Shown piece by piece: positions 13,298 to 49,280 of a DNA stretch of 64,000 nt. The translations under genes and the position numbers were made by a program. Below the pieces are notes generated by a model. It searched no databases. It was not told the origin of the DNA and was given only the letters and a program-made list of their open reading frames with translations. Numbering within the stretch: the first letter of the stretch is position 1; every line of letters starts with the position of its first letter. The DNA is from Candidatus Kaiserbacteria bacterium (GTDB lineage: Bacteria; Patescibacteriota; Minisyncoccia; Phycocordibacterales; UBA2100). The stretch lies in contig CP066682.1 in NCBI GenBank assembly GCA_016432285.1, positions 666,274 through 730,273 of the forward strand, written 5' to 3'.

Positions 13298-13328
13298 TAT
13301 GGACATCCCTTGTCCATATTTTCTTCAT
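13298..13328. repeat. palindromic repeat family copy A (TATGGACAtccctTGTCCATA + TTTTCTTCAT)
   Basis: Occupies nearly all of the 45-nt gap between convergent trxB and purH stops; same consensus as copies at 27190, 36053, 49246. Confidence 0.7.
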
Positions 13329-24107: not shown

Positions 24108-24297
24108 GGAAGTAGTGTATCAGTCGAAACTCGTGTCGATCCACGAGTAAAAAATGACGTGCAAATCACGCTTGAAATAGCTCGAACATTCGCCGCCGGT
24201 AAGGATGGCGGCAAGCACCCACGCTGACAATTTTAAGTTTTTCTTTGGCGGAAGACTTGAACGCGCGGGGTACAACAACTTGTTCTTTGAGAACAAA

Positions 24298-25134
24298 TTA
24301 TCGGACCGCAATTACAACCGAGCCGGTAACATCTTCCGTAGTTCCATTCGCGCCACCATTTCTTTGCATGTATTTCACTGTGTACGTACCCGGCTGAGTG
24401 TACGTATGAGAAACCTTGTCCGTGTATGTGGCGCAAGCATCTGTATCGGGTTTATACGCGGAGCACGTAATATCTGCTTGCTGTCCATCTCCAAACACGA
24501 CCCATTGGTCAAGAAGGCCCAAGTATGTAACTGAAAATTCCACTGCAAGAGGTGCATTACCTGAAGTTACATTGGCGGTAATCGTAGGCGGCAAAGTCAA
24601 AGACATATCCTTGCTCGCCAACATTTCGCGTTCTCCCGATACTATCGCCTCGACCAGGATATTGTGCGGCAGCGAAAAACCTGAAAGTGCATTGGCGGGA
24701 AAAGTAACTGACCAACGACCGCTTACCACAGGTACATTGTCTTGCGTATAAAGGCCTGTGTAACCTGTAAATTTCGCCGGAGTAATGGCACGAACGCTCA
24801 CACTCAGAGAACTCGTGTTTGCCGCTGTACCGCTCACGACAAATCCCGCCGAACTGCCAGCAGGCACGAGTTTATCAACGGTTGCCGAGGGTTTCGGATT
24901 ATTTGCACTCGTCTGCGATATGGGCCCCTGATTCTCCTGTGTTGCCGCAGTATCGTTCGTATCCGAAATCAAGCCCGGTGTCACTTCCATGCGCTGCTCC
25001 GTTTGCAAAGGGGCGTAGTCTTTAATTAACGGTCCAGCGGGCGCATCTGTCTGAACACCAAAAATGCTGCTGATGACGACAGCAATGGACGCAAAGAGCC
25101 ATTTCAAGAAATCCACCAAGGTAGTATACCCCAA
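24298..25134 (-). CDS. cell-surface protein with C-terminal PKD domain, TM-anchored (low-GC gene)
   Basis: N-terminal anchor, Ser/Thr-rich region, C-terminal PKD signature (NAPLAVEFS...FGDGQ...SHTYTQPGTYTVK); GC about 48-50% versus about 63% flanks. Confidence 0.65.
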   Translation of the reverse strand: MGYTTLVDFLKWLFASIAVVISSIFGVQTDAPAGPLIKDYAPLQTEQRMEVTPGLISDTNDTAATQENQGPISQTSANNPKPSATVDKLVPAGSSAGFVVSGTAANTSSLSVSVRAITPAKFTGYTGLYTQDNVPVVSGRWSVTFPANALSGFSLPHNILVEAIVSGEREMLASKDMSLTLPPTITANVTSGNAPLAVEFSVTYLGLLDQWVVFGDGQQADITCSAYKPDTDACATYTDKVSHTYTQPGTYTVKYMQRNGGANGTTEDVTGSVVIAVR

Positions 25135-25151
25135 TTAAACTTCCGTTTTTG

Positions 25152-25236
25152 CGGAGAGGGAGGGATTCGAACCCTCGATGCCTTTCGACATGCCGGTTTT
25201 CGAAACCGGTGCTTTCAACCACTCAGCCACCTCTCC
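25152..25236 (-). tRNA. tRNA-Ser (anticodon CGA), type II with long variable arm
   Basis: Cloverleaf folded by hand: acceptor GGAGAGG/CCTCTCC, anticodon stem CCGGT/ACCGG with loop TTCGAAA, variable arm ATGTC-GAAA-GGCAT, T-loop TTCGAAT; no encoded CCA. Confidence 0.85.
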
Positions 25237-25353
25237 TTCGGACAAGTAAAAACTTGTCCGCGATTTTCGCTGTGCGAAAGTCGCTAACGATCTGACCAGT
25301 CGCTAAAATAGCACACTTTGGATAGTGCATAAAATACGCTATATTTTCGCTGC

Positions 25354-25425
25354 GGCCCTATCGTCTAGTGGTTAGGACAGCGCCTTTTCAAGGCGTTAAC
25401 CGGGGTTCGATTCCCCGTAGGGTCA
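25354..25425 (+). tRNA. tRNA-Glu (anticodon UUC)
   Basis: Acceptor GGCCCTA/TAGGGTC, anticodon stem GCGCC/GGCGT, loop TTTTCAA, T-arm CGGGG-TTCGATT-CCCCG; TATATT box upstream. Confidence 0.85.
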
Positions 25426-25426
25426 T

Positions 25427-25470
25427 GAATACCAAAAGTCCGCAGCGCCGCTGCGGCTTTTTTGGTATTC
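25427..25470 (+). terminator. terminator hairpin immediately after tRNA-Glu
   Basis: GAATACCAAAAG-TCCGCAGCG-ccg-CTGCGG-C-TTTTTTGGTATTC extended palindrome with T6. Confidence 0.6.
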
Positions 25471-25590
25471 GCGGGTTCCATTCGGGGAATCGAAAGACGG
25501 AGGCGGGGTCCCCGCTCGCGGGGAGCCGAGTCGGGGTCGCGGAAATTTTGCATAGTAAAATTATCCATGACCGATTCCCCGTATGGTCAC
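25471..25590 (+). other. structured tRNA-trailer element ending in a copy of the tRNA-Glu 3' end (CGATTCCCCGTAtGGTCA)
   Basis: 25572-25589 matches tRNA-Glu 25408-25425 at 17/18; internal hairpins (GCGGGG-tc-CCCGC; GGAAATTTT..AAAATTATCC); long-range pairing 25480-25491 with 25572-25583; homologous to the element after tRNA-Val. Confidence 0.4.
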
Positions 25591-25599
25591 AAGTGAAAT

Positions 25600-26490
25600 T
25601 TAACTGTGCAGCCAAATATAGAGGTCCCTAAAAACCATCTCGGCCCTGCCATTGCGCCTCACAATTTCTGCGAGCCTTTCACCGATGCCACGCTGCGCTG
25701 CCTCCGGGAGCCGCTCCCAGTCGGTGCGCAAAATAAACGATAGTAGCAACTTTCCGTCTCGATTAGGACTGAACGCGCCGTCCTGAAAACAGGAACTTAC
25801 GTCCGTGTGAGCATTGACGATCTCTGATTGATTTTCAATATTTAACTTTGCAAGCTCCGCTACGATTTCCTCCCCTGGCAATTCCGGCGCAGGCTGGGCA
25901 GTATGTTTATGTAGCTCTGCGAGCAGCTCATACCTGTCGCTTGTTGAGGAATAGATTGTTATCAGACCGACGCCGTTCGTATCCAGCGAATTGGCGAATT
26001 TCTGCAAGGTATTTGTTTCCTTCGGTGTATTCCTCCAATCCTGAATGTAGTACCAAACATGAGAGGACATTGAGAAATCCGAAAGTGGTGGATCGTGGGA
26101 CGGATCTTCAAACGGTATCACTTGGTAATCTGAAACAATGTCTGACAATCCCGCCGTGATTGCATTCGTATTAAATTCTGATGCCATTGTTTGAGAAACG
26201 TCCTCGCAAGAAATTGAGATGTTATCTTTTGTGCCCCGCTCCGCGATAAAGGATTTAAGCAGGGGTAATTCCAACCCGCCGTTCCCAGCGCCCATTACAT
26301 ATATGCGAAATAGTTGTTCTGAATTGCGTAGCTTGCTCCAAGCAGCGGGCGCCATTCGTTGAATGCCACTTAGTGTGGCGTCGAGTTGCACCTCCTTCTG
26401 ATCCGTGTTGCGGAGAAACACGGCAAATCGCTCTCTTGCTGCATTAAACGCTCCAGTACGCACCGCTTCTCCAGTCGACATCGTTTCCAT
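25600..26490 (-). CDS. class I SAM-dependent methyltransferase-like protein (low-GC, probably acquired)
   Basis: Motif I IYVMGAGNGGLELPLL followed by acidic ISCED; likely start METMSTGE at 26490; gene GC about 48%; divergent from the alkA-like gene. Confidence 0.55.
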   Translation of the reverse strand: METMSTGEAVRTGAFNAARERFAVFLRNTDQKEVQLDATLSGIQRMAPAAWSKLRNSEQLFRIYVMGAGNGGLELPLLKSFIAERGTKDNISISCEDVSQTMASEFNTNAITAGLSDIVSDYQVIPFEDPSHDPPLSDFSMSSHVWYYIQDWRNTPKETNTLQKFANSLDTNGVGLITIYSSTSDRYELLAELHKHTAQPAPELPGEEIVAELAKLNIENQSEIVNAHTDVSSCFQDGAFSPNRDGKLLLSFILRTDWERLPEAAQRGIGERLAEIVRRNGRAEMVFRDLYIWLHS

Positions 26491-26566
26491 CCTACAGGCA
26501 TCAAATATCAGACGCCAGCATTGTTTTATCGAATCCTGTTCTCGGTACAATGGGCTCACCGAGCGC

Positions 26567-27187
26567 ATGACGAACAATCTTCGAAAATCGATTTTGATCT
26601 TGAAGCGCGACCCGCGGTTCGCGCCGATCGTGCGAAAGTACGGTAAGCCCGATCTCACGCGCTACTTCGGCGGCATCGGGATCTTTCCGGCGCTGCTGCG
26701 CTCAATCGTGTACCAGCAGCTCTCGGGCCACGCGGCGCGCGCGATCCTCGCGCGCGTACTCGTGCTCTTTCCACGCGGGAAGCCAACGCCGCGCCGCCTG
26801 ATCAAGCTCCCCGCGGGAAAGCTCCGGGCCGCCGGCCTCTCCGTGCAGAAGATTTCGTACGTGCGTGATCTCGCGCACAAGTGCCTCGACGGCACGATCG
26901 ACGAGAAGCAATTCCCGACGATGAGCAGCGAGGAGATTGTGCAACACCTCACGCAGGTGCGCGGCGTCGGGCAGTGGTCCGCGCACATGGTGCTCATCTT
27001 TACCCTGCACCGGCTCGACATTTTGCCCACGGGAGATCTTGGTATCCGCAAGGGCTTCCAGATTCTCTACAAACTACGCACACTCCCGGACAAAAAGAAA
27101 ATGGAGAGTCTGGCGCGCCCGTGGCACGCGCACGCTTCGATCGCGAGCTGGTATCTCTGGCAGATCGCGGACGAAAATAAAAAGTGA
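26567..27187 (+). CDS. DNA-3-methyladenine glycosylase II / HhH-GPD family base-excision glycosylase (AlkA-like)
   Basis: Internal ATG at 26567 (MTNNLRKSILILKRDPRFAPIVRKYG...); HhH-GPD hallmark VRGVGQWSAHMVL...ILPTGDLGIRKG with catalytic Asp. Confidence 0.75.
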   Translation: MTNNLRKSILILKRDPRFAPIVRKYGKPDLTRYFGGIGIFPALLRSIVYQQLSGHAARAILARVLVLFPRGKPTPRRLIKLPAGKLRAAGLSVQKISYVRDLAHKCLDGTIDEKQFPTMSSEEIVQHLTQVRGVGQWSAHMVLIFTLHRLDILPTGDLGIRKGFQILYKLRTLPDKKKMESLARPWHAHASIASWYLWQIADENKK

Positions 27188-27189
27188 AG

Positions 27190-27223
27190 ATGAAGAAAAT
27201 ATAGACAAGGGATGTCCATATTT
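27190..27223. repeat. palindromic repeat family copy B (ATGAAGAAAATATAGACAagggATGTCCATATTT)
   Basis: Directly after the alkA-like stop; opposite orientation relative to copy A. Confidence 0.7.
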
Positions 27224-27230
27224 GGAAAAA

Positions 27231-27256
27231 GCCCCGCCGAGGCGGGACTTTTTTAA
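27231..27256. terminator. bidirectional terminator (CCCGCC-ga-GGCGGG flanked by A5 and T6)
   Basis: AAAAAGCCCCGCCGAGGCGGGACTTTTTTAAT. Confidence 0.65.
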
Positions 27257-27414
27257 TACTGCATGCTTGAAGTGCCGGTGCCCGAGGTGCCCGTGCCCGT
27301 ATTCGGGACGCTGGGGTTGGTGCCGCCCGAGAAGTACAGCCAGCCTCCGATGAGAATGGCAAGCACAAGGATGACTCCGACGACCCACGCAGCAAGTGTG
27401 GTGCTGGTGTCCAT
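27253..27414 (-). pseudogene. 53-codon ORF encoding only a TM anchor plus Thr/Gly linker; truncated member of the anchor-linker surface protein family
   Basis: MDTSTTLAAWVVGVILVLAILIGGWLYFSGGTNPSVPNTGTGTSGTGTSSMQY* parallels the N-termini of 14542..15021 and 28698..29246 but stops where those proteins begin their globular domains; not in the ORF track (below size cutoff). Confidence 0.35.
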
Positions 27415-27525
27415 AGAGGTAACTTACGAGTAAGGGTTCGCGAATCGCGAACGCACGGGTAAGCCTAACGGTACGCGCGTGAGAGTGTGGTGAACTGCGG
27501 CGCCTCGCCGATTTAATGAATCCGC

Positions 27526-27560
27526 TTGACTTGACCCGAGTCCCCTGTTGTAGTTATAGT
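27526..27560 (+). promoter_or_regulatory. strong sigma70-like promoter (TTGACT/TTGACC-18nt-TATAGT) with 5' leader hairpin and perfect SD for 27628 gene
   Basis: Hexamers read directly; leader hairpin GAACGGGG-aatc-CCCCGTTC at 27570-27589; AGGAGG at 27617-27622, 5 nt before ATG. Confidence 0.5.
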
Positions 27561-27627
27561 ACTGCTTAGGAACGGGGAATCCCCCGTTCGAAACGCAACC
27601 TGAACCGAACCACATGAGGAGGATCTG

Positions 27628-28638
27628 ATGAATCACGTTCTCTCTATCGGCGACCGGCGCCATCTTCCATTTTTGACTGATATCGACGGAAGTCGTGCCG
27701 ACGCCGGGGAATACGCCTGTTCGTATCGCAAGGAGTGTGATGTGATGCCCGTATTTACCGCCTCCCCCTACGGGGTGACGGTGGGGTTCTTCGTCTACTG
27801 CGGCGGCGAGCGCAAGCTCGTGCACAGTTGCTCGCAGACGGCATGCATCATTGGCGGCTGGCGCGCGTTCCGACTCCTGGAGCGCGTCGAGAGCGTCAAT
27901 TACGGCACTCCGCTGGCGGCACTCCGTGTCGCCGACGATAGCGTGGTGGGCGAGATCACTGCCTCGGCCGAACGCTACTTCTCGTCGCCAGCCGCTTACC
28001 GGAGCGCGTGCTCCGATATTCGCGAAGCGGTGCCAGACCTGGATACTCTCGCCAACATGTTGCAGATCGTGATCCGGACCAAGGCTACAGTCCGGCTCGA
28101 CGGCATCATGCGCGTATTCGGGAATAACCCGCCGAGTGAAATCCGGCCCCTGCTCCAGAGCGTGAATCCGATCTCGGGGCAGACCGACCTGGTCTGCGAG
28201 GACTGGGTCCCGTTTGCCGCGCAGATCCGAAAGCGCGGCAGGCACTATAAGGGGTTCCAGGTAGCCGCGATCGGTTATTCGCGGCCGGAAACGCCGGGCG
28301 GGATGCCGTGGGTGTGTGCGGGAGCAAACATGCAGTTCACGGAATACTCGCAACCGATGTGCGCGGAGGATCGGGTCTTGGAGCAGGCTGAGCACGACGA
28401 AATCACGCTCGACCGGCTCCTGATCTACGGCGTGCCGCGCAAGCGCGACACGACGAAGACGCTCCACCCGTGCAGCGAGCGCTGCCTTGCGCGTTTGCAC
28501 GATAAGTACTTGCGCAAGAAGGCGGTGAAGGCGTCGACAATCCTTACGTGCGTGCACGCGGAGACGGGGTTCACGGAGGAGTTCACGCTCCGTGAATACT
28601 TCGCGATGAACGGTGTCATCACTTCCCCGTGGGGGTGA
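27628..28638 (+). CDS. cytidine/deoxycytidylate-deaminase-fold protein: ~230-aa Cys-rich N-terminal domain of unknown function + C-terminal CDA-like zinc deaminase domain (336 aa)
   Basis: C-terminal GANMQFTEYSQPMCAE...(35 aa)...PCSERC parallels the CDA signature G-x-N-x-E-N-x-x-Y...C/H-A-E...P-C-x-x-C (as in B. subtilis Cdd CAE...PCGAC); antisense 377-aa ORF is Arg-rich junk. Confidence 0.55.
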   Translation: MNHVLSIGDRRHLPFLTDIDGSRADAGEYACSYRKECDVMPVFTASPYGVTVGFFVYCGGERKLVHSCSQTACIIGGWRAFRLLERVESVNYGTPLAALRVADDSVVGEITASAERYFSSPAAYRSACSDIREAVPDLDTLANMLQIVIRTKATVRLDGIMRVFGNNPPSEIRPLLQSVNPISGQTDLVCEDWVPFAAQIRKRGRHYKGFQVAAIGYSRPETPGGMPWVCAGANMQFTEYSQPMCAEDRVLEQAEHDEITLDRLLIYGVPRKRDTTKTLHPCSERCLARLHDKYLRKKAVKASTILTCVHAETGFTEEFTLREYFAMNGVITSPWG

Positions 28639-28644
28639 TGGGCG

Positions 28645-28682
28645 AAAACGAACGGGGCGGCCCCAAGCCGCCCCGTTTTCTT
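28645..28682. terminator. bidirectional terminator between convergent genes
   Basis: ACGGGGCGGC-cccaa-GCCGCCCCGT perfect 10-bp stem, A-run before and T4 after. Confidence 0.7.
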
Positions 28683-28697
28683 ATTGCCGTCTTTTTC

Positions 28698-29246
28698 CTA
28701 CTGCGCCAGGAAGCTGCGATTGACCGCCGTTCCCCCCGCGGTCACGATCGCGTCGAGCTTGATGTCGAATTTCTTGTCGCCGTCGTCGACGTAGATGATC
28801 GCGTAGTAAATCTTGCCCTTTTCGGTGGCTCGCAAAAGCGACACCGTGCCATTCGCCACTGCCGTGCCGTCGAAGCGCGACGCGCCCAAGACCCAGCCAT
28901 TGGCGTCCTTGATTGCGATCCACGAAGGCTTCACGAGTGTCGCGCTCGCGATGATTACGCTGCCACCCGCAGGCTGGTCGTTGACCGAAAGCGACTCGCC
29001 GCTCGAGGCGGTCGTCATGCTCGCGGTGGAGCTTGTGCCGCCCGAAGTGCTGCCCGTAGCCGTGCCATTTGTCGAACCGGTCGCCGTGCCCGTGGCAGTG
29101 CCGGTCGACGTGCCAGTCGTTGTCCCCGTGTTTTCAGGAGCCGGAGCTTGCGGGTTGCGGCTCCAGATCCACCAGCCACCGATAATAACGACGAGCGCGC
29201 CGACCCCGATGAGGATCCACTGCGTCGTCTGATTTTTCATGTCCAT
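28698..29246 (-). CDS. membrane-anchored extracellular protein with long Thr/Gly linker and C-terminal beta-rich domain (about 182 aa)
   Basis: Likely start MDMKNQ/MKNQ (29246/29240); TM ILIGVGALVVIIGGWWIW, linker TGTTTGTSTGTATGTATGSTNGTATGSTSGG; shares anchor-linker design with 14542..15021. Confidence 0.55.
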   Translation of the reverse strand: MDMKNQTTQWILIGVGALVVIIGGWWIWSRNPQAPAPENTGTTTGTSTGTATGTATGSTNGTATGSTSGGTSSTASMTTASSGESLSVNDQPAGGSVIIASATLVKPSWIAIKDANGWVLGASRFDGTAVANGTVSLLRATEKGKIYYAIIYVDDGDKKFDIKLDAIVTAGGTAVNRSFLAQ

Positions 29247-29370
29247 AATTCGTTGCATCTCTAAATGAATACTAATGAATGTCCCCAGTGTACGGGCAGC
29301 TCCGGTTTGGTCAACCACGACGGCGGACGACCACAGACAACCTTCATGTACGCCATCTATAGTTTTGTGT

Positions 29371-29934
29371 ATGGAAATCTGGCACACGATCGCGGGCGAT
29401 ATTGAGAAAAAGACGGCGCAGGAGACGATCCAGTGGATCAACGGTGAGCTCTATTCGAAACCCATCACCCGTCTCCGCGTCTTGATCGCTTCCGGCGGGG
29501 GCGACATCGATGCGGGTGTCAATCTCCACATGTACCTGAAGGCACTCCCCTTCGACGTGGAAACCATCGGCTTTGGGAAAGTCGACGCCGCCGCGATTCC
29601 AATTTTCCTTGCGGGTACGCGCCGGCTCGCGGTGCGCGGCTGCCAATTCTTCTTCCACGAAGGGCGTTACTTCATCGAGGACCAAACCGCGCCGATCCAC
29701 GTGCACGAGGAAGCGGTATCGATCTTCAAGCGCAACCTGCACGACACGATCTACATCATCGCGCGCGAAACGGAGAACGACACCGAGGTGGTCGCAAAAA
29801 TGCTGCGCCGGAGCAAGATCATGAATGTGGACGAGGCGAAGGAGTTCGGCCTCTGCACCGAAGTGATCGACACGCTGCCTTTGCAACAGCAAGAGCAGTT
29901 TGGCTTCAAGTTCGGCGAAAAGCGACTGGTTTAA
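29371..29934 (+). CDS. ClpP/crotonase-fold protein, ClpP-like with catalytic Ser apparently replaced (187 aa)
   Basis: Internal ATG at 29371 (MEIWHTIAG...) with TATAGT directly upstream; aligns to ClpP core (ASGGGDIDAGVNLHMYL ~ INSPGGSVTAGLAIYDTM); His (FFFHEG) and Asp present, but GQAASMG region reads GKVDAAAIP. Confidence 0.5.
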   Translation: MEIWHTIAGDIEKKTAQETIQWINGELYSKPITRLRVLIASGGGDIDAGVNLHMYLKALPFDVETIGFGKVDAAAIPIFLAGTRRLAVRGCQFFFHEGRYFIEDQTAPIHVHEEAVSIFKRNLHDTIYIIARETENDTEVVAKMLRRSKIMNVDEAKEFGLCTEVIDTLPLQQQEQFGFKFGEKRLV

Positions 29935-49245: not shown

Positions 49246-49280
49246 AATATGGACATCGAATGTCCATATTTTCTTCATTT
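49246..49280. repeat. palindromic repeat family copy C (ATATGGACATcgaATGTCCATAT + TTTCTTCATTTT)
   Basis: Perfect 10-nt arms; T-rich tail on plus strand. Confidence 0.7.

Follow-up and report, generated by a model that had tools for sequence, protein, structure and literature searches.

A re-modelled cytidine-deaminase-like protein with an orphan N-terminal extension encoded in a Candidatus Kaiserbacteria genome

What is the product of a gene that carries its own strong expression signals next to a DNA glycosylase gene of Candidatus Kaiserbacteria, and on which substrate would it act? The gene lies in a stretch of 64,000 nucleotides (the window; positions 666,274 to 730,273 of contig CP066682.1, assembly GCA_016432285.1) and encodes a protein of 336 amino acids, for which an earlier note, made from the letters of the window alone, had proposed a cytidine deaminase (CDA) fold in the C-terminal part behind an N-terminal part of no recognisable family. 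In this study we demonstrate that the C-terminal half of the protein is indeed a CDA fold with Cys-type zinc ligands. What is new here is a previously unannotated, re-modelled clade of CDA-like proteins, of which this member has a unique orphan extension at its N-terminus.

The open reading frame (ORF) exists as the earlier note had given it. Its product is identical to the NCBI protein HYS26_04085 from the Candidatus Kaiserbacteria metagenome-assembled genome (MAG), and an independent Logan assembly contains 1511 nt of this region at 100% identity, with the same neighbours. The GC content by codon position of the deaminase ORF is 0.60/0.47/0.79, and that of the bona fide genes of the window is about 0.63/0.44/0.78. 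The overlapping ORF of 377 amino acids on the opposite strand (27424..28557) has a shadow pattern of 0.75/0.48/0.61. The coordinates of all features are collected in Table 1.

The direct profile match of the protein to PF00383 reaches 15.8 bits (E 0.013) against a cut-off of 25. The phmmer search against 1.84 billion representative proteins returned 11 other proteins at E <= 0.001, ten of which are 106-193 amino acids long and align solely to residues ~191-333 at 28-40% identity; most of the small homologues exceed the Pfam threshold for PF00383. When the profile of these homologues was compared with solved structures, it matched the tetrameric Cdd enzymes (2D30, 1JTK and mutants) at E 1.3e-9 to 6e-9, whereas blasticidin-S deaminase (1WN5, 3OJ6, 3B8F) was matched at E 0.016 only. 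The AlphaFold2 (AF2) model calculated with an alignment of 41 sequences has a predicted local distance difference test (pLDDT) score above 90 for residues 190-330; a model from the single sequence was poor (pLDDT 37) and was discarded. In a Foldseek search of the PDB with the AF2 model, the top matches were tetrameric CDAs only, with template modelling (TM) scores of 0.70-0.80 normalised to the target, and the best of them was yeast CDD1, a tetrameric CDA whose PDB entry title calls it an orphan C-to-U editase. The protein thus has the fold and the [CH]AE ... PCxxC-type motifs of the CDA/deaminase-fold superfamily (Pfam clan of PF00383). The structural and profile matches also exclude a random coincidence of CxE and PCxxC motifs, which the earlier note had named as a way in which its reading might fail.

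The deaminase module is larger than was first thought. It had been placed from residue 230 onwards; however, helix 1 of the domain spans residues 188-201 and the N-termini of the homologues align at S177, which puts the actual start at about residue 177. The closest homologues are complete stand-alone proteins of ~150 amino acids that start with M-S-P-x-N-P-I. This start aligns to S177-V-N-P-I181 in the window protein, and where they have their start codon, the gene in the window has CAG (Gln176). Since the homologue N-termini align at this very point, a complete deaminase module appears to have gained a 176-residue extension.

The homologues define a clade that we call 'TLHPC'. Its members are ~145-250 amino acids long and share the pattern [SH]Y.xF.V...G.N.K ... 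CAE (no Arg) ... TLHPC.(x)xC ... E..T...L...H, which the window protein fits except for deviations at three positions given below; the profile of 11 members scores it at E 4.7e-51. The family is small, with 12 representatives at E <= 0.001 when searched with the single sequence and ~25-30 clusters when 5.8 billion sequences were searched with the profile, and the members with a named source come from Kaiserbacteria, Paceibacterota and Parcubacteria MAGs. Literature searches on cytidine deaminase in Patescibacteria or the candidate phyla radiation (CPR) found nothing specific. On the Cdd equivalog models TIGR01354 and NF004064 the window protein scores 13.9 bits against a cut-off of 113.65 and 12.2 bits against 74, respectively, and the other family members reach 13-47 bits against cut-offs of 74-216 bits. 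Because these scores are so far below the cut-offs, we file the protein outside Cdd: judged by its sequence, it is a member of the CDA superfamily, tetrameric-Cdd-like, yet not a Cdd.

What sets the clade apart becomes visible when it is compared with the experimentally characterised enzymes, for which 42 tested tetrameric CDAs and the structure of CDA_F14 define four conserved regions and the substrate contacts (PMC9897663). In CDA_F14-type enzymes Asn42, Glu44, Ala46' and Tyr48' contact the 3'- and 5'-oxygens of the ribose, and the Glu of the region II motif NxEN(S), which is present in 42/42 tested CDAs, binds the ribose 3'-OH (PMC9897663). In the tetrameric enzymes CAE is directly followed by an Arg (Arg56), the zinc knuckle has the sequence PCxxCRQ, the pocket is closed by Phe126 of an adjacent subunit, and its volume is determined by the β3-α3 loop (PMC9897663).

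With Cdd (1JTK of B. subtilis, 2D30 of B. anthracis, CDA_F14 7ZOB; TIGR01354) the window protein has in common the fold over the whole module of 130-150 amino acids, including the C-terminal 'TVxELL', the Cys-Cys-Cys zinc ligands, the catalytic Glu of CAE, the Asn that binds the sugar and the stacking Phe. It contains the motifs G-A-N234-M-Q-F-T-E-Y240, C245-A-E247 and P281-C282; N234, E247, C282 and C286 are invariant across the 41 aligned sequences, of which no fewer than 90% also have C245. However, the surroundings of these residues differ from Cdd. In region II the canonical NxEN is replaced by NxK across the family and by NMQF in the window protein, so that the replacement of the ribose-contacting E-N, which the earlier note had pointed out, is true and extends to the whole alignment. 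In region III the Arg after CAE is lost family-wide, and the window protein reads CAED. In region IV the canonical PCxxCRQ has become P-C-S-E-R-C-L-A in the window protein, i.e., the knuckle is CxxxC and not PCxxC as first described, and the spacer between the two zinc motifs, given before as 35 residues, measures 32 after CAED. This spacing is a mark of a sub-clade (C-[GES]-E-[RH]-C) formed by the window protein with P0003, P0004, P0006 and P0007, the other members having CxxC. Ahead of the second zinc motif, the β3-α3 loop has 4-9 additional residues, with a near-invariant T-L-H-P-C at its end, and at the C-terminus the canonical LLPxxF is replaced by L...H(G) in the family and by YFAMNG in the window protein, so that the Pro123/Phe126 lid (P...F) is absent. 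In addition, Cdd has no counterpart of the 176-residue extension. As far as sequence comparison can tell, the window protein is thus a protein with predicted tetrameric-CDA chemistry in which four features that define Cdd are missing. The alignment shows that the motif shifts of the clade fall exactly on the predicted determinants of specificity.

We give an even chance to the explanation that the protein is a zinc deaminase with an accessory role, whose substrate is a derivative of a cytosine nucleoside rather than plain cytidine or deoxycytidine. A changed substrate is suggested by the replacement of Glu by Gln or Lys, the loss of the Arg after CAE, the loss of the lid Phe and the longer β3-α3 loop. 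The accessory status is proposed because the family comprises about 25-30 known clusters as compared with 2520 homologues of the neighbouring glycosylase, and because of the synteny described below. The clade would then be a rare sister of the homotetrameric CDAs, found so far mostly in genomes of the Paceibacteria/Parcubacteria type. In the proposed mechanism the zinc would be held by Cys245, Cys282 and Cys286, Glu247 would shuttle the proton, and the zinc-bound hydroxide would attack C4 of a cytosine ring stacked on Phe210, with Asn234 contacting the sugar. By analogy with Cdd, the working form is probably a Cdd-like oligomer. Candidate substrates could be cytosine nucleosides with a modified sugar, a phosphate group or a substituent at N4, or else a blasticidin-type nucleoside antibiotic. 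The ancestral start codon (now Gln176) would have been lost in this one genome, the orphan extension having been added upstream. We infer catalytic activity, substrate class, oligomeric state and expression level from the sequence.

Several observations weigh against this explanation. It is the altered motifs alone that speak for a substrate other than cytidine. Of the canonical site, the Asn and the stacking Phe are kept, as is Tyr240-Ser241 in the window protein, and plain cytidine or deoxycytidine may therefore still be the substrate. The neighbourhoods of the homologues, viewed as ±10-kb loci, vary from locus to locus, contain mostly housekeeping genes and give no hint of function. At three sites the window protein lacks the residue typical of its family, having Gln236 in place of Lys, Leu287 in place of Arg and Asn in place of the C-terminal His; given these losses and its CxxxC spacing, it could have reduced activity or none. 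The base composition of the deaminase segment is host-like, which suggests that the insertion is not recent or that the donor genome was similar. As to the extension, its codon-usage score is low (0.13 for residues 1-190 as compared with 0.17-0.62 for confident genes), its pLDDT ranges from 30 to 77, with values below 50 for the greater part of residues 1-135, and translation from 27628 through its whole length is presumed from the reading frame.

Some of these observations would fit an ordinary Cdd of pyrimidine salvage that has diverged fast in the CPR and carries a functionally neutral extension. CPR bacteria rely on nucleoside salvage. All the best sequence and fold matches are tetrameric Cdd enzymes acting on free nucleosides, Asn234, Phe210 and Tyr240 are kept, two family members have been named 'cytidine deaminase' by the Joint Genome Institute (JGI), and the homologues sit among housekeeping genes. 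However, the NxEN motif found in 42/42 tested CDAs (PMC9897663) is absent from the whole family, as are the equivalents of Arg56 and Phe126, and 13.9 bits against 113.65 is hardly the score of a Cdd. Moreover, a core salvage enzyme would hardly be so rare and so patchily distributed as this family, and the gene is missing from the syntenic locus of relatives. We regard this explanation as rather unlikely, although it is the strongest of the rivals to an altered deaminase.

The N-terminal extension raises a different doubt, namely that the protein as annotated is in part an artefact or that the gene is decaying: translation could start later (at Met40 or at about residue 177), the product could be a dead remnant, and the N-terminal part could be recruited non-coding DNA. 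The phmmer search found no true homologue of residues 1-176 among the 1.84 billion representative proteins; the lone match of the region, P0011 (2861 amino acids), is a repetitive coiled-coil protein and was rejected as a compositional artefact. There was no Pfam, PHROG or PADLOC match either, and the earlier description of this part as belonging to no detectable family holds after an exhaustive search. The tblastn and blastn searches with the N-region in the window and the related loci turned up solely a homologue of the neighbouring 53-residue ORF and a 31-nt repeat, both described below. Two possible origins of the extension were rejected: a degenerate second copy of the CDA domain (hhalign probability 0.7%) and a fusion with the gene for a membrane protein of 251/259 amino acids that neighbours the homologues at L006 and L020, to which it has no similarity. 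The absence of homologues, the low pLDDT, the codon-usage signal, which is -0.03 for residues 1-60, the second Shine-Dalgarno (SD) sequence and start at 27730-27747 and the three substituted family residues all speak for an artefact or decay.

On the other hand, an open frame of 176 codons with a third-position GC content of 0.76 at 60% GC would arise by chance with a probability of ~0.2% by our own estimate, and of the six frames it is the extension's own that scores best for codon usage. The strongest SD of the window stands exactly 5 nt from the ATG at 27628, whereas near residue 177 there is neither an SD nor a plausible start, the ancestral ATG being CAG now. In addition, two AF2 runs gave the same secondary structure for the N-terminal domain, and all zinc and catalytic residues of the deaminase are intact. 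An artefact or a decaying gene is, in our view, a minor possibility. The two low-confidence models agree on a three-stranded beta-meander (38-68) followed by about six helices, with residues 1-36 modelled as disordered. Cys31, Cys37, Cys58, Cys68 and Cys73 cluster with His66 in residues 31-73; the first pair is C31-x5-C37 and not the CxxxxC that had been read before.

The model of the N-terminal domain bears on a third alternative, according to which the protein is a nucleic-acid deaminase, i.e., a C-to-U editor of RNA or DNA or a toxin or defence effector, with the N-terminal domain recruiting the polynucleotide. At low confidence it contains an alpha-beta-beta-beta-alpha unit and has weak structural matches to double-stranded RNA-binding domains (dsRBD), SRP9 and small phage proteins; the resemblance to dsRBD and SRP9 is only a lead. 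The unique fusion, the lineage-specific insertion, the strong autonomous signals and the rarity are typical of conflict genes, replacement of the ribose-pocket Glu by Lys or Gln might suit a phosphodiester backbone, and yeast CDD1, with its title of an orphan C-to-U editase, heads the Foldseek list. Like the domain-fused proteins of the CDA type, such as archaeal CDAT8 (CDA with THUMP) and the dimeric E. coli Cdd with its extra domain, the window protein has a CDA core and another domain in one chain.

As regards toxins and defence, the similarities are those of architecture. Like the anti-phage dCTP/dCMP deaminases (ComEB/T4 Cd type), the gene is accessory and has its deaminase C-terminally fused to another domain. 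However, residues 1-190 contain no P-loop motif (GxxxxGK[ST]), PADLOC had no match for the window protein or three family members, and the fold is nearer to Cdd. As in the polymorphic-toxin deaminases (DddA, SsdA), a C-terminal deaminase domain follows a variable N-terminal region, but the secretion or trafficking module, the downstream immunity gene and the toxin-clade fold of these toxins were not found. Inspection of the locus revealed no immunity-like partner and no secretion module, in agreement with what the earlier note had seen there, and searches of PADLOC, PHROGs, IMG/VR and BFVD yielded generic dCMP deaminase matches at most and no viral relative. A toxin or phage-defence role, as had been suggested, has no support from these searches. 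A nucleic-acid deaminase is to our mind the least probable of the three rivals, and we hold it very improbable that the orphan domain of the model, with its Cys/His cluster, is a nucleic-acid-binding module that steers the re-modelled deaminase domain towards RNA or DNA cytosines, making the protein a bacterial C-to-U editor of an unseen kind that would have arisen in a CPR lineage through the extension of a stand-alone deaminase. If so, the 'TLHPC' clade as a whole would represent a deaminase family not described before, whose substrate is not a nucleoside.

The altered zinc deaminase that we favour would be expressed from signals of its own. The promoter TTGACC-18-TATAGT reported before is present and matches at 10/12 positions; promoter-like sites number 3 in 3.3 kb as compared with 1.3 ± 1.2 in shuffled sequences, and transcription is predicted to start at ~27567-27570. 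The AGGAGG at 5 nt from the ATG was likewise confirmed. The window contains 61 AGGAGG hexamers on both strands, and of these a single one, at 27617-27622, lies ahead of the first start of a long ORF with coding character; an SD core at 3-11 nt from the start is nearly absent among the other genes of the window. Thus the statement that most core genes here are leaderless stands in so far as they lack an SD, although leaderless status itself is not demonstrable from sequence. A strong SD also occurs at 5/5 of the closest homologue loci (L004, L005, L006, L009, L010), and a near-consensus promoter of the TTGACA type with a short leader at 4/5 (L004, L005, L009, L010), where the neighbouring genes are mostly without an SD. 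Counting the window together with these five loci, the strong SD is found in 6/6 and a TTGACA/TTGACC-type promoter in 5/6 cases. Because the closest homologue loci carry such signals too, strong autonomous expression signals are by this comparison a conserved trait of the CDA-like clade, and the proposal that the gene is equipped for strong expression is borne out by the promoter, the unique SD and the homologue loci. SD motifs were also nearly absent before the genes of L005, L006 and L010, the CDA-like gene being the consistent exception.

The 8-bp leader hairpin noted before is there, but taken by itself the fold of the whole leader lacks significance (z = -1.72 against shuffled sequences). 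Its stem AACGGGG...CCCCGTT occurs in 2 copies in 64 kb (27571-27588 and 28651-28677) with 0 expected by chance, and these two hairpins bracket the deaminase ORF as a 5' leader and a 3' terminator. Protection of the mRNA ends would be a reasonable guess. Both bidirectional terminators that had been described were found. A scan of the leader and the 3' region against Rfam gave no family above the gathering score (all E >= 0.098). The palindrome at 27436-27452 is single-copy in the window and, with mismatches allowed, not above chance; it could be an operator.

The deaminase gene is inserted at a variable position within an otherwise conserved block. Synteny was obtained through homologues of the upstream gene, since a contig scan based on Sua5 gave only an unrelated Flavobacteriaceae locus. 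At L011, where the glycosylase is 67% identical to that of the window, the order is the same as in the window backbone (HhH-GPD, DUF7282, ClpP-like, Sua5, ABC transporter, TsaD, aminoacyl-tRNA synthetase), and the gap between the HhH-GPD and DUF7282 genes is 73 bp with a single hairpin. As the corresponding interval in the window measures 1510 bp, the deaminase gene and the 53-residue ORF form a lineage-specific insert. At L014, from another Kaiserbacteria genome, HhH-GPD abuts Sua5. The glycosylase block is thus conserved in both loci and the deaminase is absent from it, which backs the earlier suspicion that the gene was acquired. A search of the flanks for direct or inverted repeats, by which a mobile element would be recognised, gave only short matches at chance level. 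The whole interval from HhH-GPD to Sua5 is a variable hotspot (window 27188-29930; L011 7616-8876; L014 7626-7639): it is empty at L014, holds DUF7282 and the ClpP-like gene at L011, and in the window additionally holds the 53-residue ORF and the deaminase.

The upstream gene does encode an AlkA-like enzyme as had been stated, namely a 3-methyladenine glycosylase of the AlkA/Mag type with an HhH-GPD domain (PF00730 E 6e-13, S. pombe Mag1 E 1.6e-28, E. coli AlkA E 2e-5). Its 2520 homologues were counted at E <= 1e-20, and those with a named source all belong to CPR/Patescibacteria lineages. However, its adjacency to the deaminase, which had been pointed out, is coincidental, because the glycosylase keeps its syntenic block in relatives that have no deaminase there. 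Functional coupling of the two genes was rejected, as a terminator and an antisense ORF lie between them and they are not adjacent in any relative.

This antisense ORF encodes a 53-residue single-pass membrane protein that resembles the N-terminus of the DUF7282 protein, and it had been taken for a truncated surface-protein gene. It has a homologue of nearly equal length at L014 (6771-6950 on the minus strand, 55-59 amino acids depending on the start; tblastn E 2e-6), and the DUF7282 gene itself is of full length (182 amino acids in the window, 159 at L011), so the term truncated does not apply. The small protein, with the pattern MD...W..G....L......W......P.VPNTG...., adjoins the glycosylase in two Kaiserbacteria genomes on opposite sides, and the L014 copy had not been called as a gene. 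The palindromic repeat reported as flanking the gene is the 31-nt element at 27190-27220, of which there are 3 copies in 64 kb with 0 expected; at least the two at 13298 and 27190 directly follow stop codons. It looks like a REP-like (repetitive extragenic palindromic) or terminator-associated repeat of this genome.

Among the homologue loci, those of P0003 and P0004 are one locus in common (L006 203-1461, L020 8001-9276), which suggests vertical inheritance in that lineage. The CDA-like gene is accompanied there by genes for the membrane-anchored protein of 251/259 amino acids (47% identical), FtsW/RodA, a glycosyltransferase, Bac_transf, an epimerase and FolD. At L020 a 4-kb stretch upstream is nearly without called genes and may be an rRNA operon. 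The more distant member P0019 (192 amino acids; L018/L019 6001-6579) lies on the same strand inside a cluster for haem biosynthesis and cytochrome oxidase, in the order COX1-4, UbiA, HemC, HemD, the CDA-like gene, a chlorite-dismutase-like gene, URO-D and ferrochelatase, a position unexpected for a nucleoside deaminase.

Two further parts of the window deserve mention. At ~24200-26300 the GC content is 0.47-0.53 as compared with 0.60-0.64, with weak codon-position bias. The segment contains a gene for a PKD-domain surface protein (24298-25134, minus strand), tRNA-Ser (25151-25236, minus), tRNA-Glu (25354-25425, plus) and an unassigned ORF of 293/352 amino acids (25600-26658, minus), and it may be a second acquired segment beside tRNA genes. 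The Clp protease neighbour at 29275-29934 (plus strand; 187/219 amino acids; PF00574 E 2e-19), which stands beside DUF7282 at L011 too, may be an atypical ClpP-like protein.

Table 1. Positions in the window of the deaminase gene, its parts and the elements around it.
Feature	Position	Strand	Remarks
ORF of 336 amino acids	27628..28638	+	coordinates include the stop codon; NCBI HYS26_04085, annotated as hypothetical protein
Orphan N-terminal extension, residues 1-176	27628..28155	+	without homologue
CDA-fold zinc deaminase domain, residues 177-336	28156..28635	+	tetrameric-Cdd-like type
Possible alternative start: AAGGAG 27730-27735, GTG 27742, ATG 27745 (Met40)	27730..27747	+	in frame
Region II/III motif N234-M-Q-F-T-E-Y-S-Q-P-M-C245-A-E247	28327..28368	+	predicted roles, by homology to CDA_F14 and B. 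subtilis Cdd
L-H-P281-C282-S-E-R-C286, TLHPC motif and CxxxC zinc knuckle	28462..28485	+	from the alignment
Sigma-70-like promoter TTGACC-18-TATAGT	27531..27560	+	10/12 positions match
Leader hairpin GAACGGGG-AATC-CCCCGTTC	27570..27589	+	8-bp stem, 4-nt loop; at or near the predicted mRNA 5' end
Shine-Dalgarno GAGGAGG	27616..27622	+	AGGAGG 5 nt from ATG
Perfect palindrome GTTCGCGA-A-TCGCGAAC	27436..27452		between the 53-residue ORF and the deaminase promoter
Bidirectional terminator-like hairpin	27231..27246	both	upstream of the deaminase gene
Bidirectional terminator-like hairpin	28650..28678	both	12 bp, 9 G-C pairs; common to the convergent DUF7282 gene
Lineage-specific insert between the HhH-GPD and DUF7282 genes	27188..28697		1510 bp vs 73 bp in L011
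ORF for 53-residue single-pass membrane protein	27253..27414	-	divergent from the deaminase; within the 1.5-kb insert
31-nt element ATGAAGAAAATATRGACAnnnGATGTCCATA	13298-13328, 27190-27220, 49248-49278	-, +, -	9-10-bp palindrome

Taken as a whole, the results do not overturn current understanding; they concern a hypothetical protein with a recognisable catalytic core. The locus offers a natural example of a stand-alone enzyme that would have gained an orphan extension of 176 residues after the loss of its start codon, and also of a gene inserted in a conserved syntenic block that keeps its promoter and SD where such sites are rare. The deaminase superfamily has repeatedly been a source of base editors, drug-metabolising enzymes and antibiotic-resistance markers. 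If the substrate of the 'TLHPC' clade is truly not cytidine, this superfamily would gain an uncharacterised branch from bacteria of the CPR, which rely on scavenging for their nucleotides.

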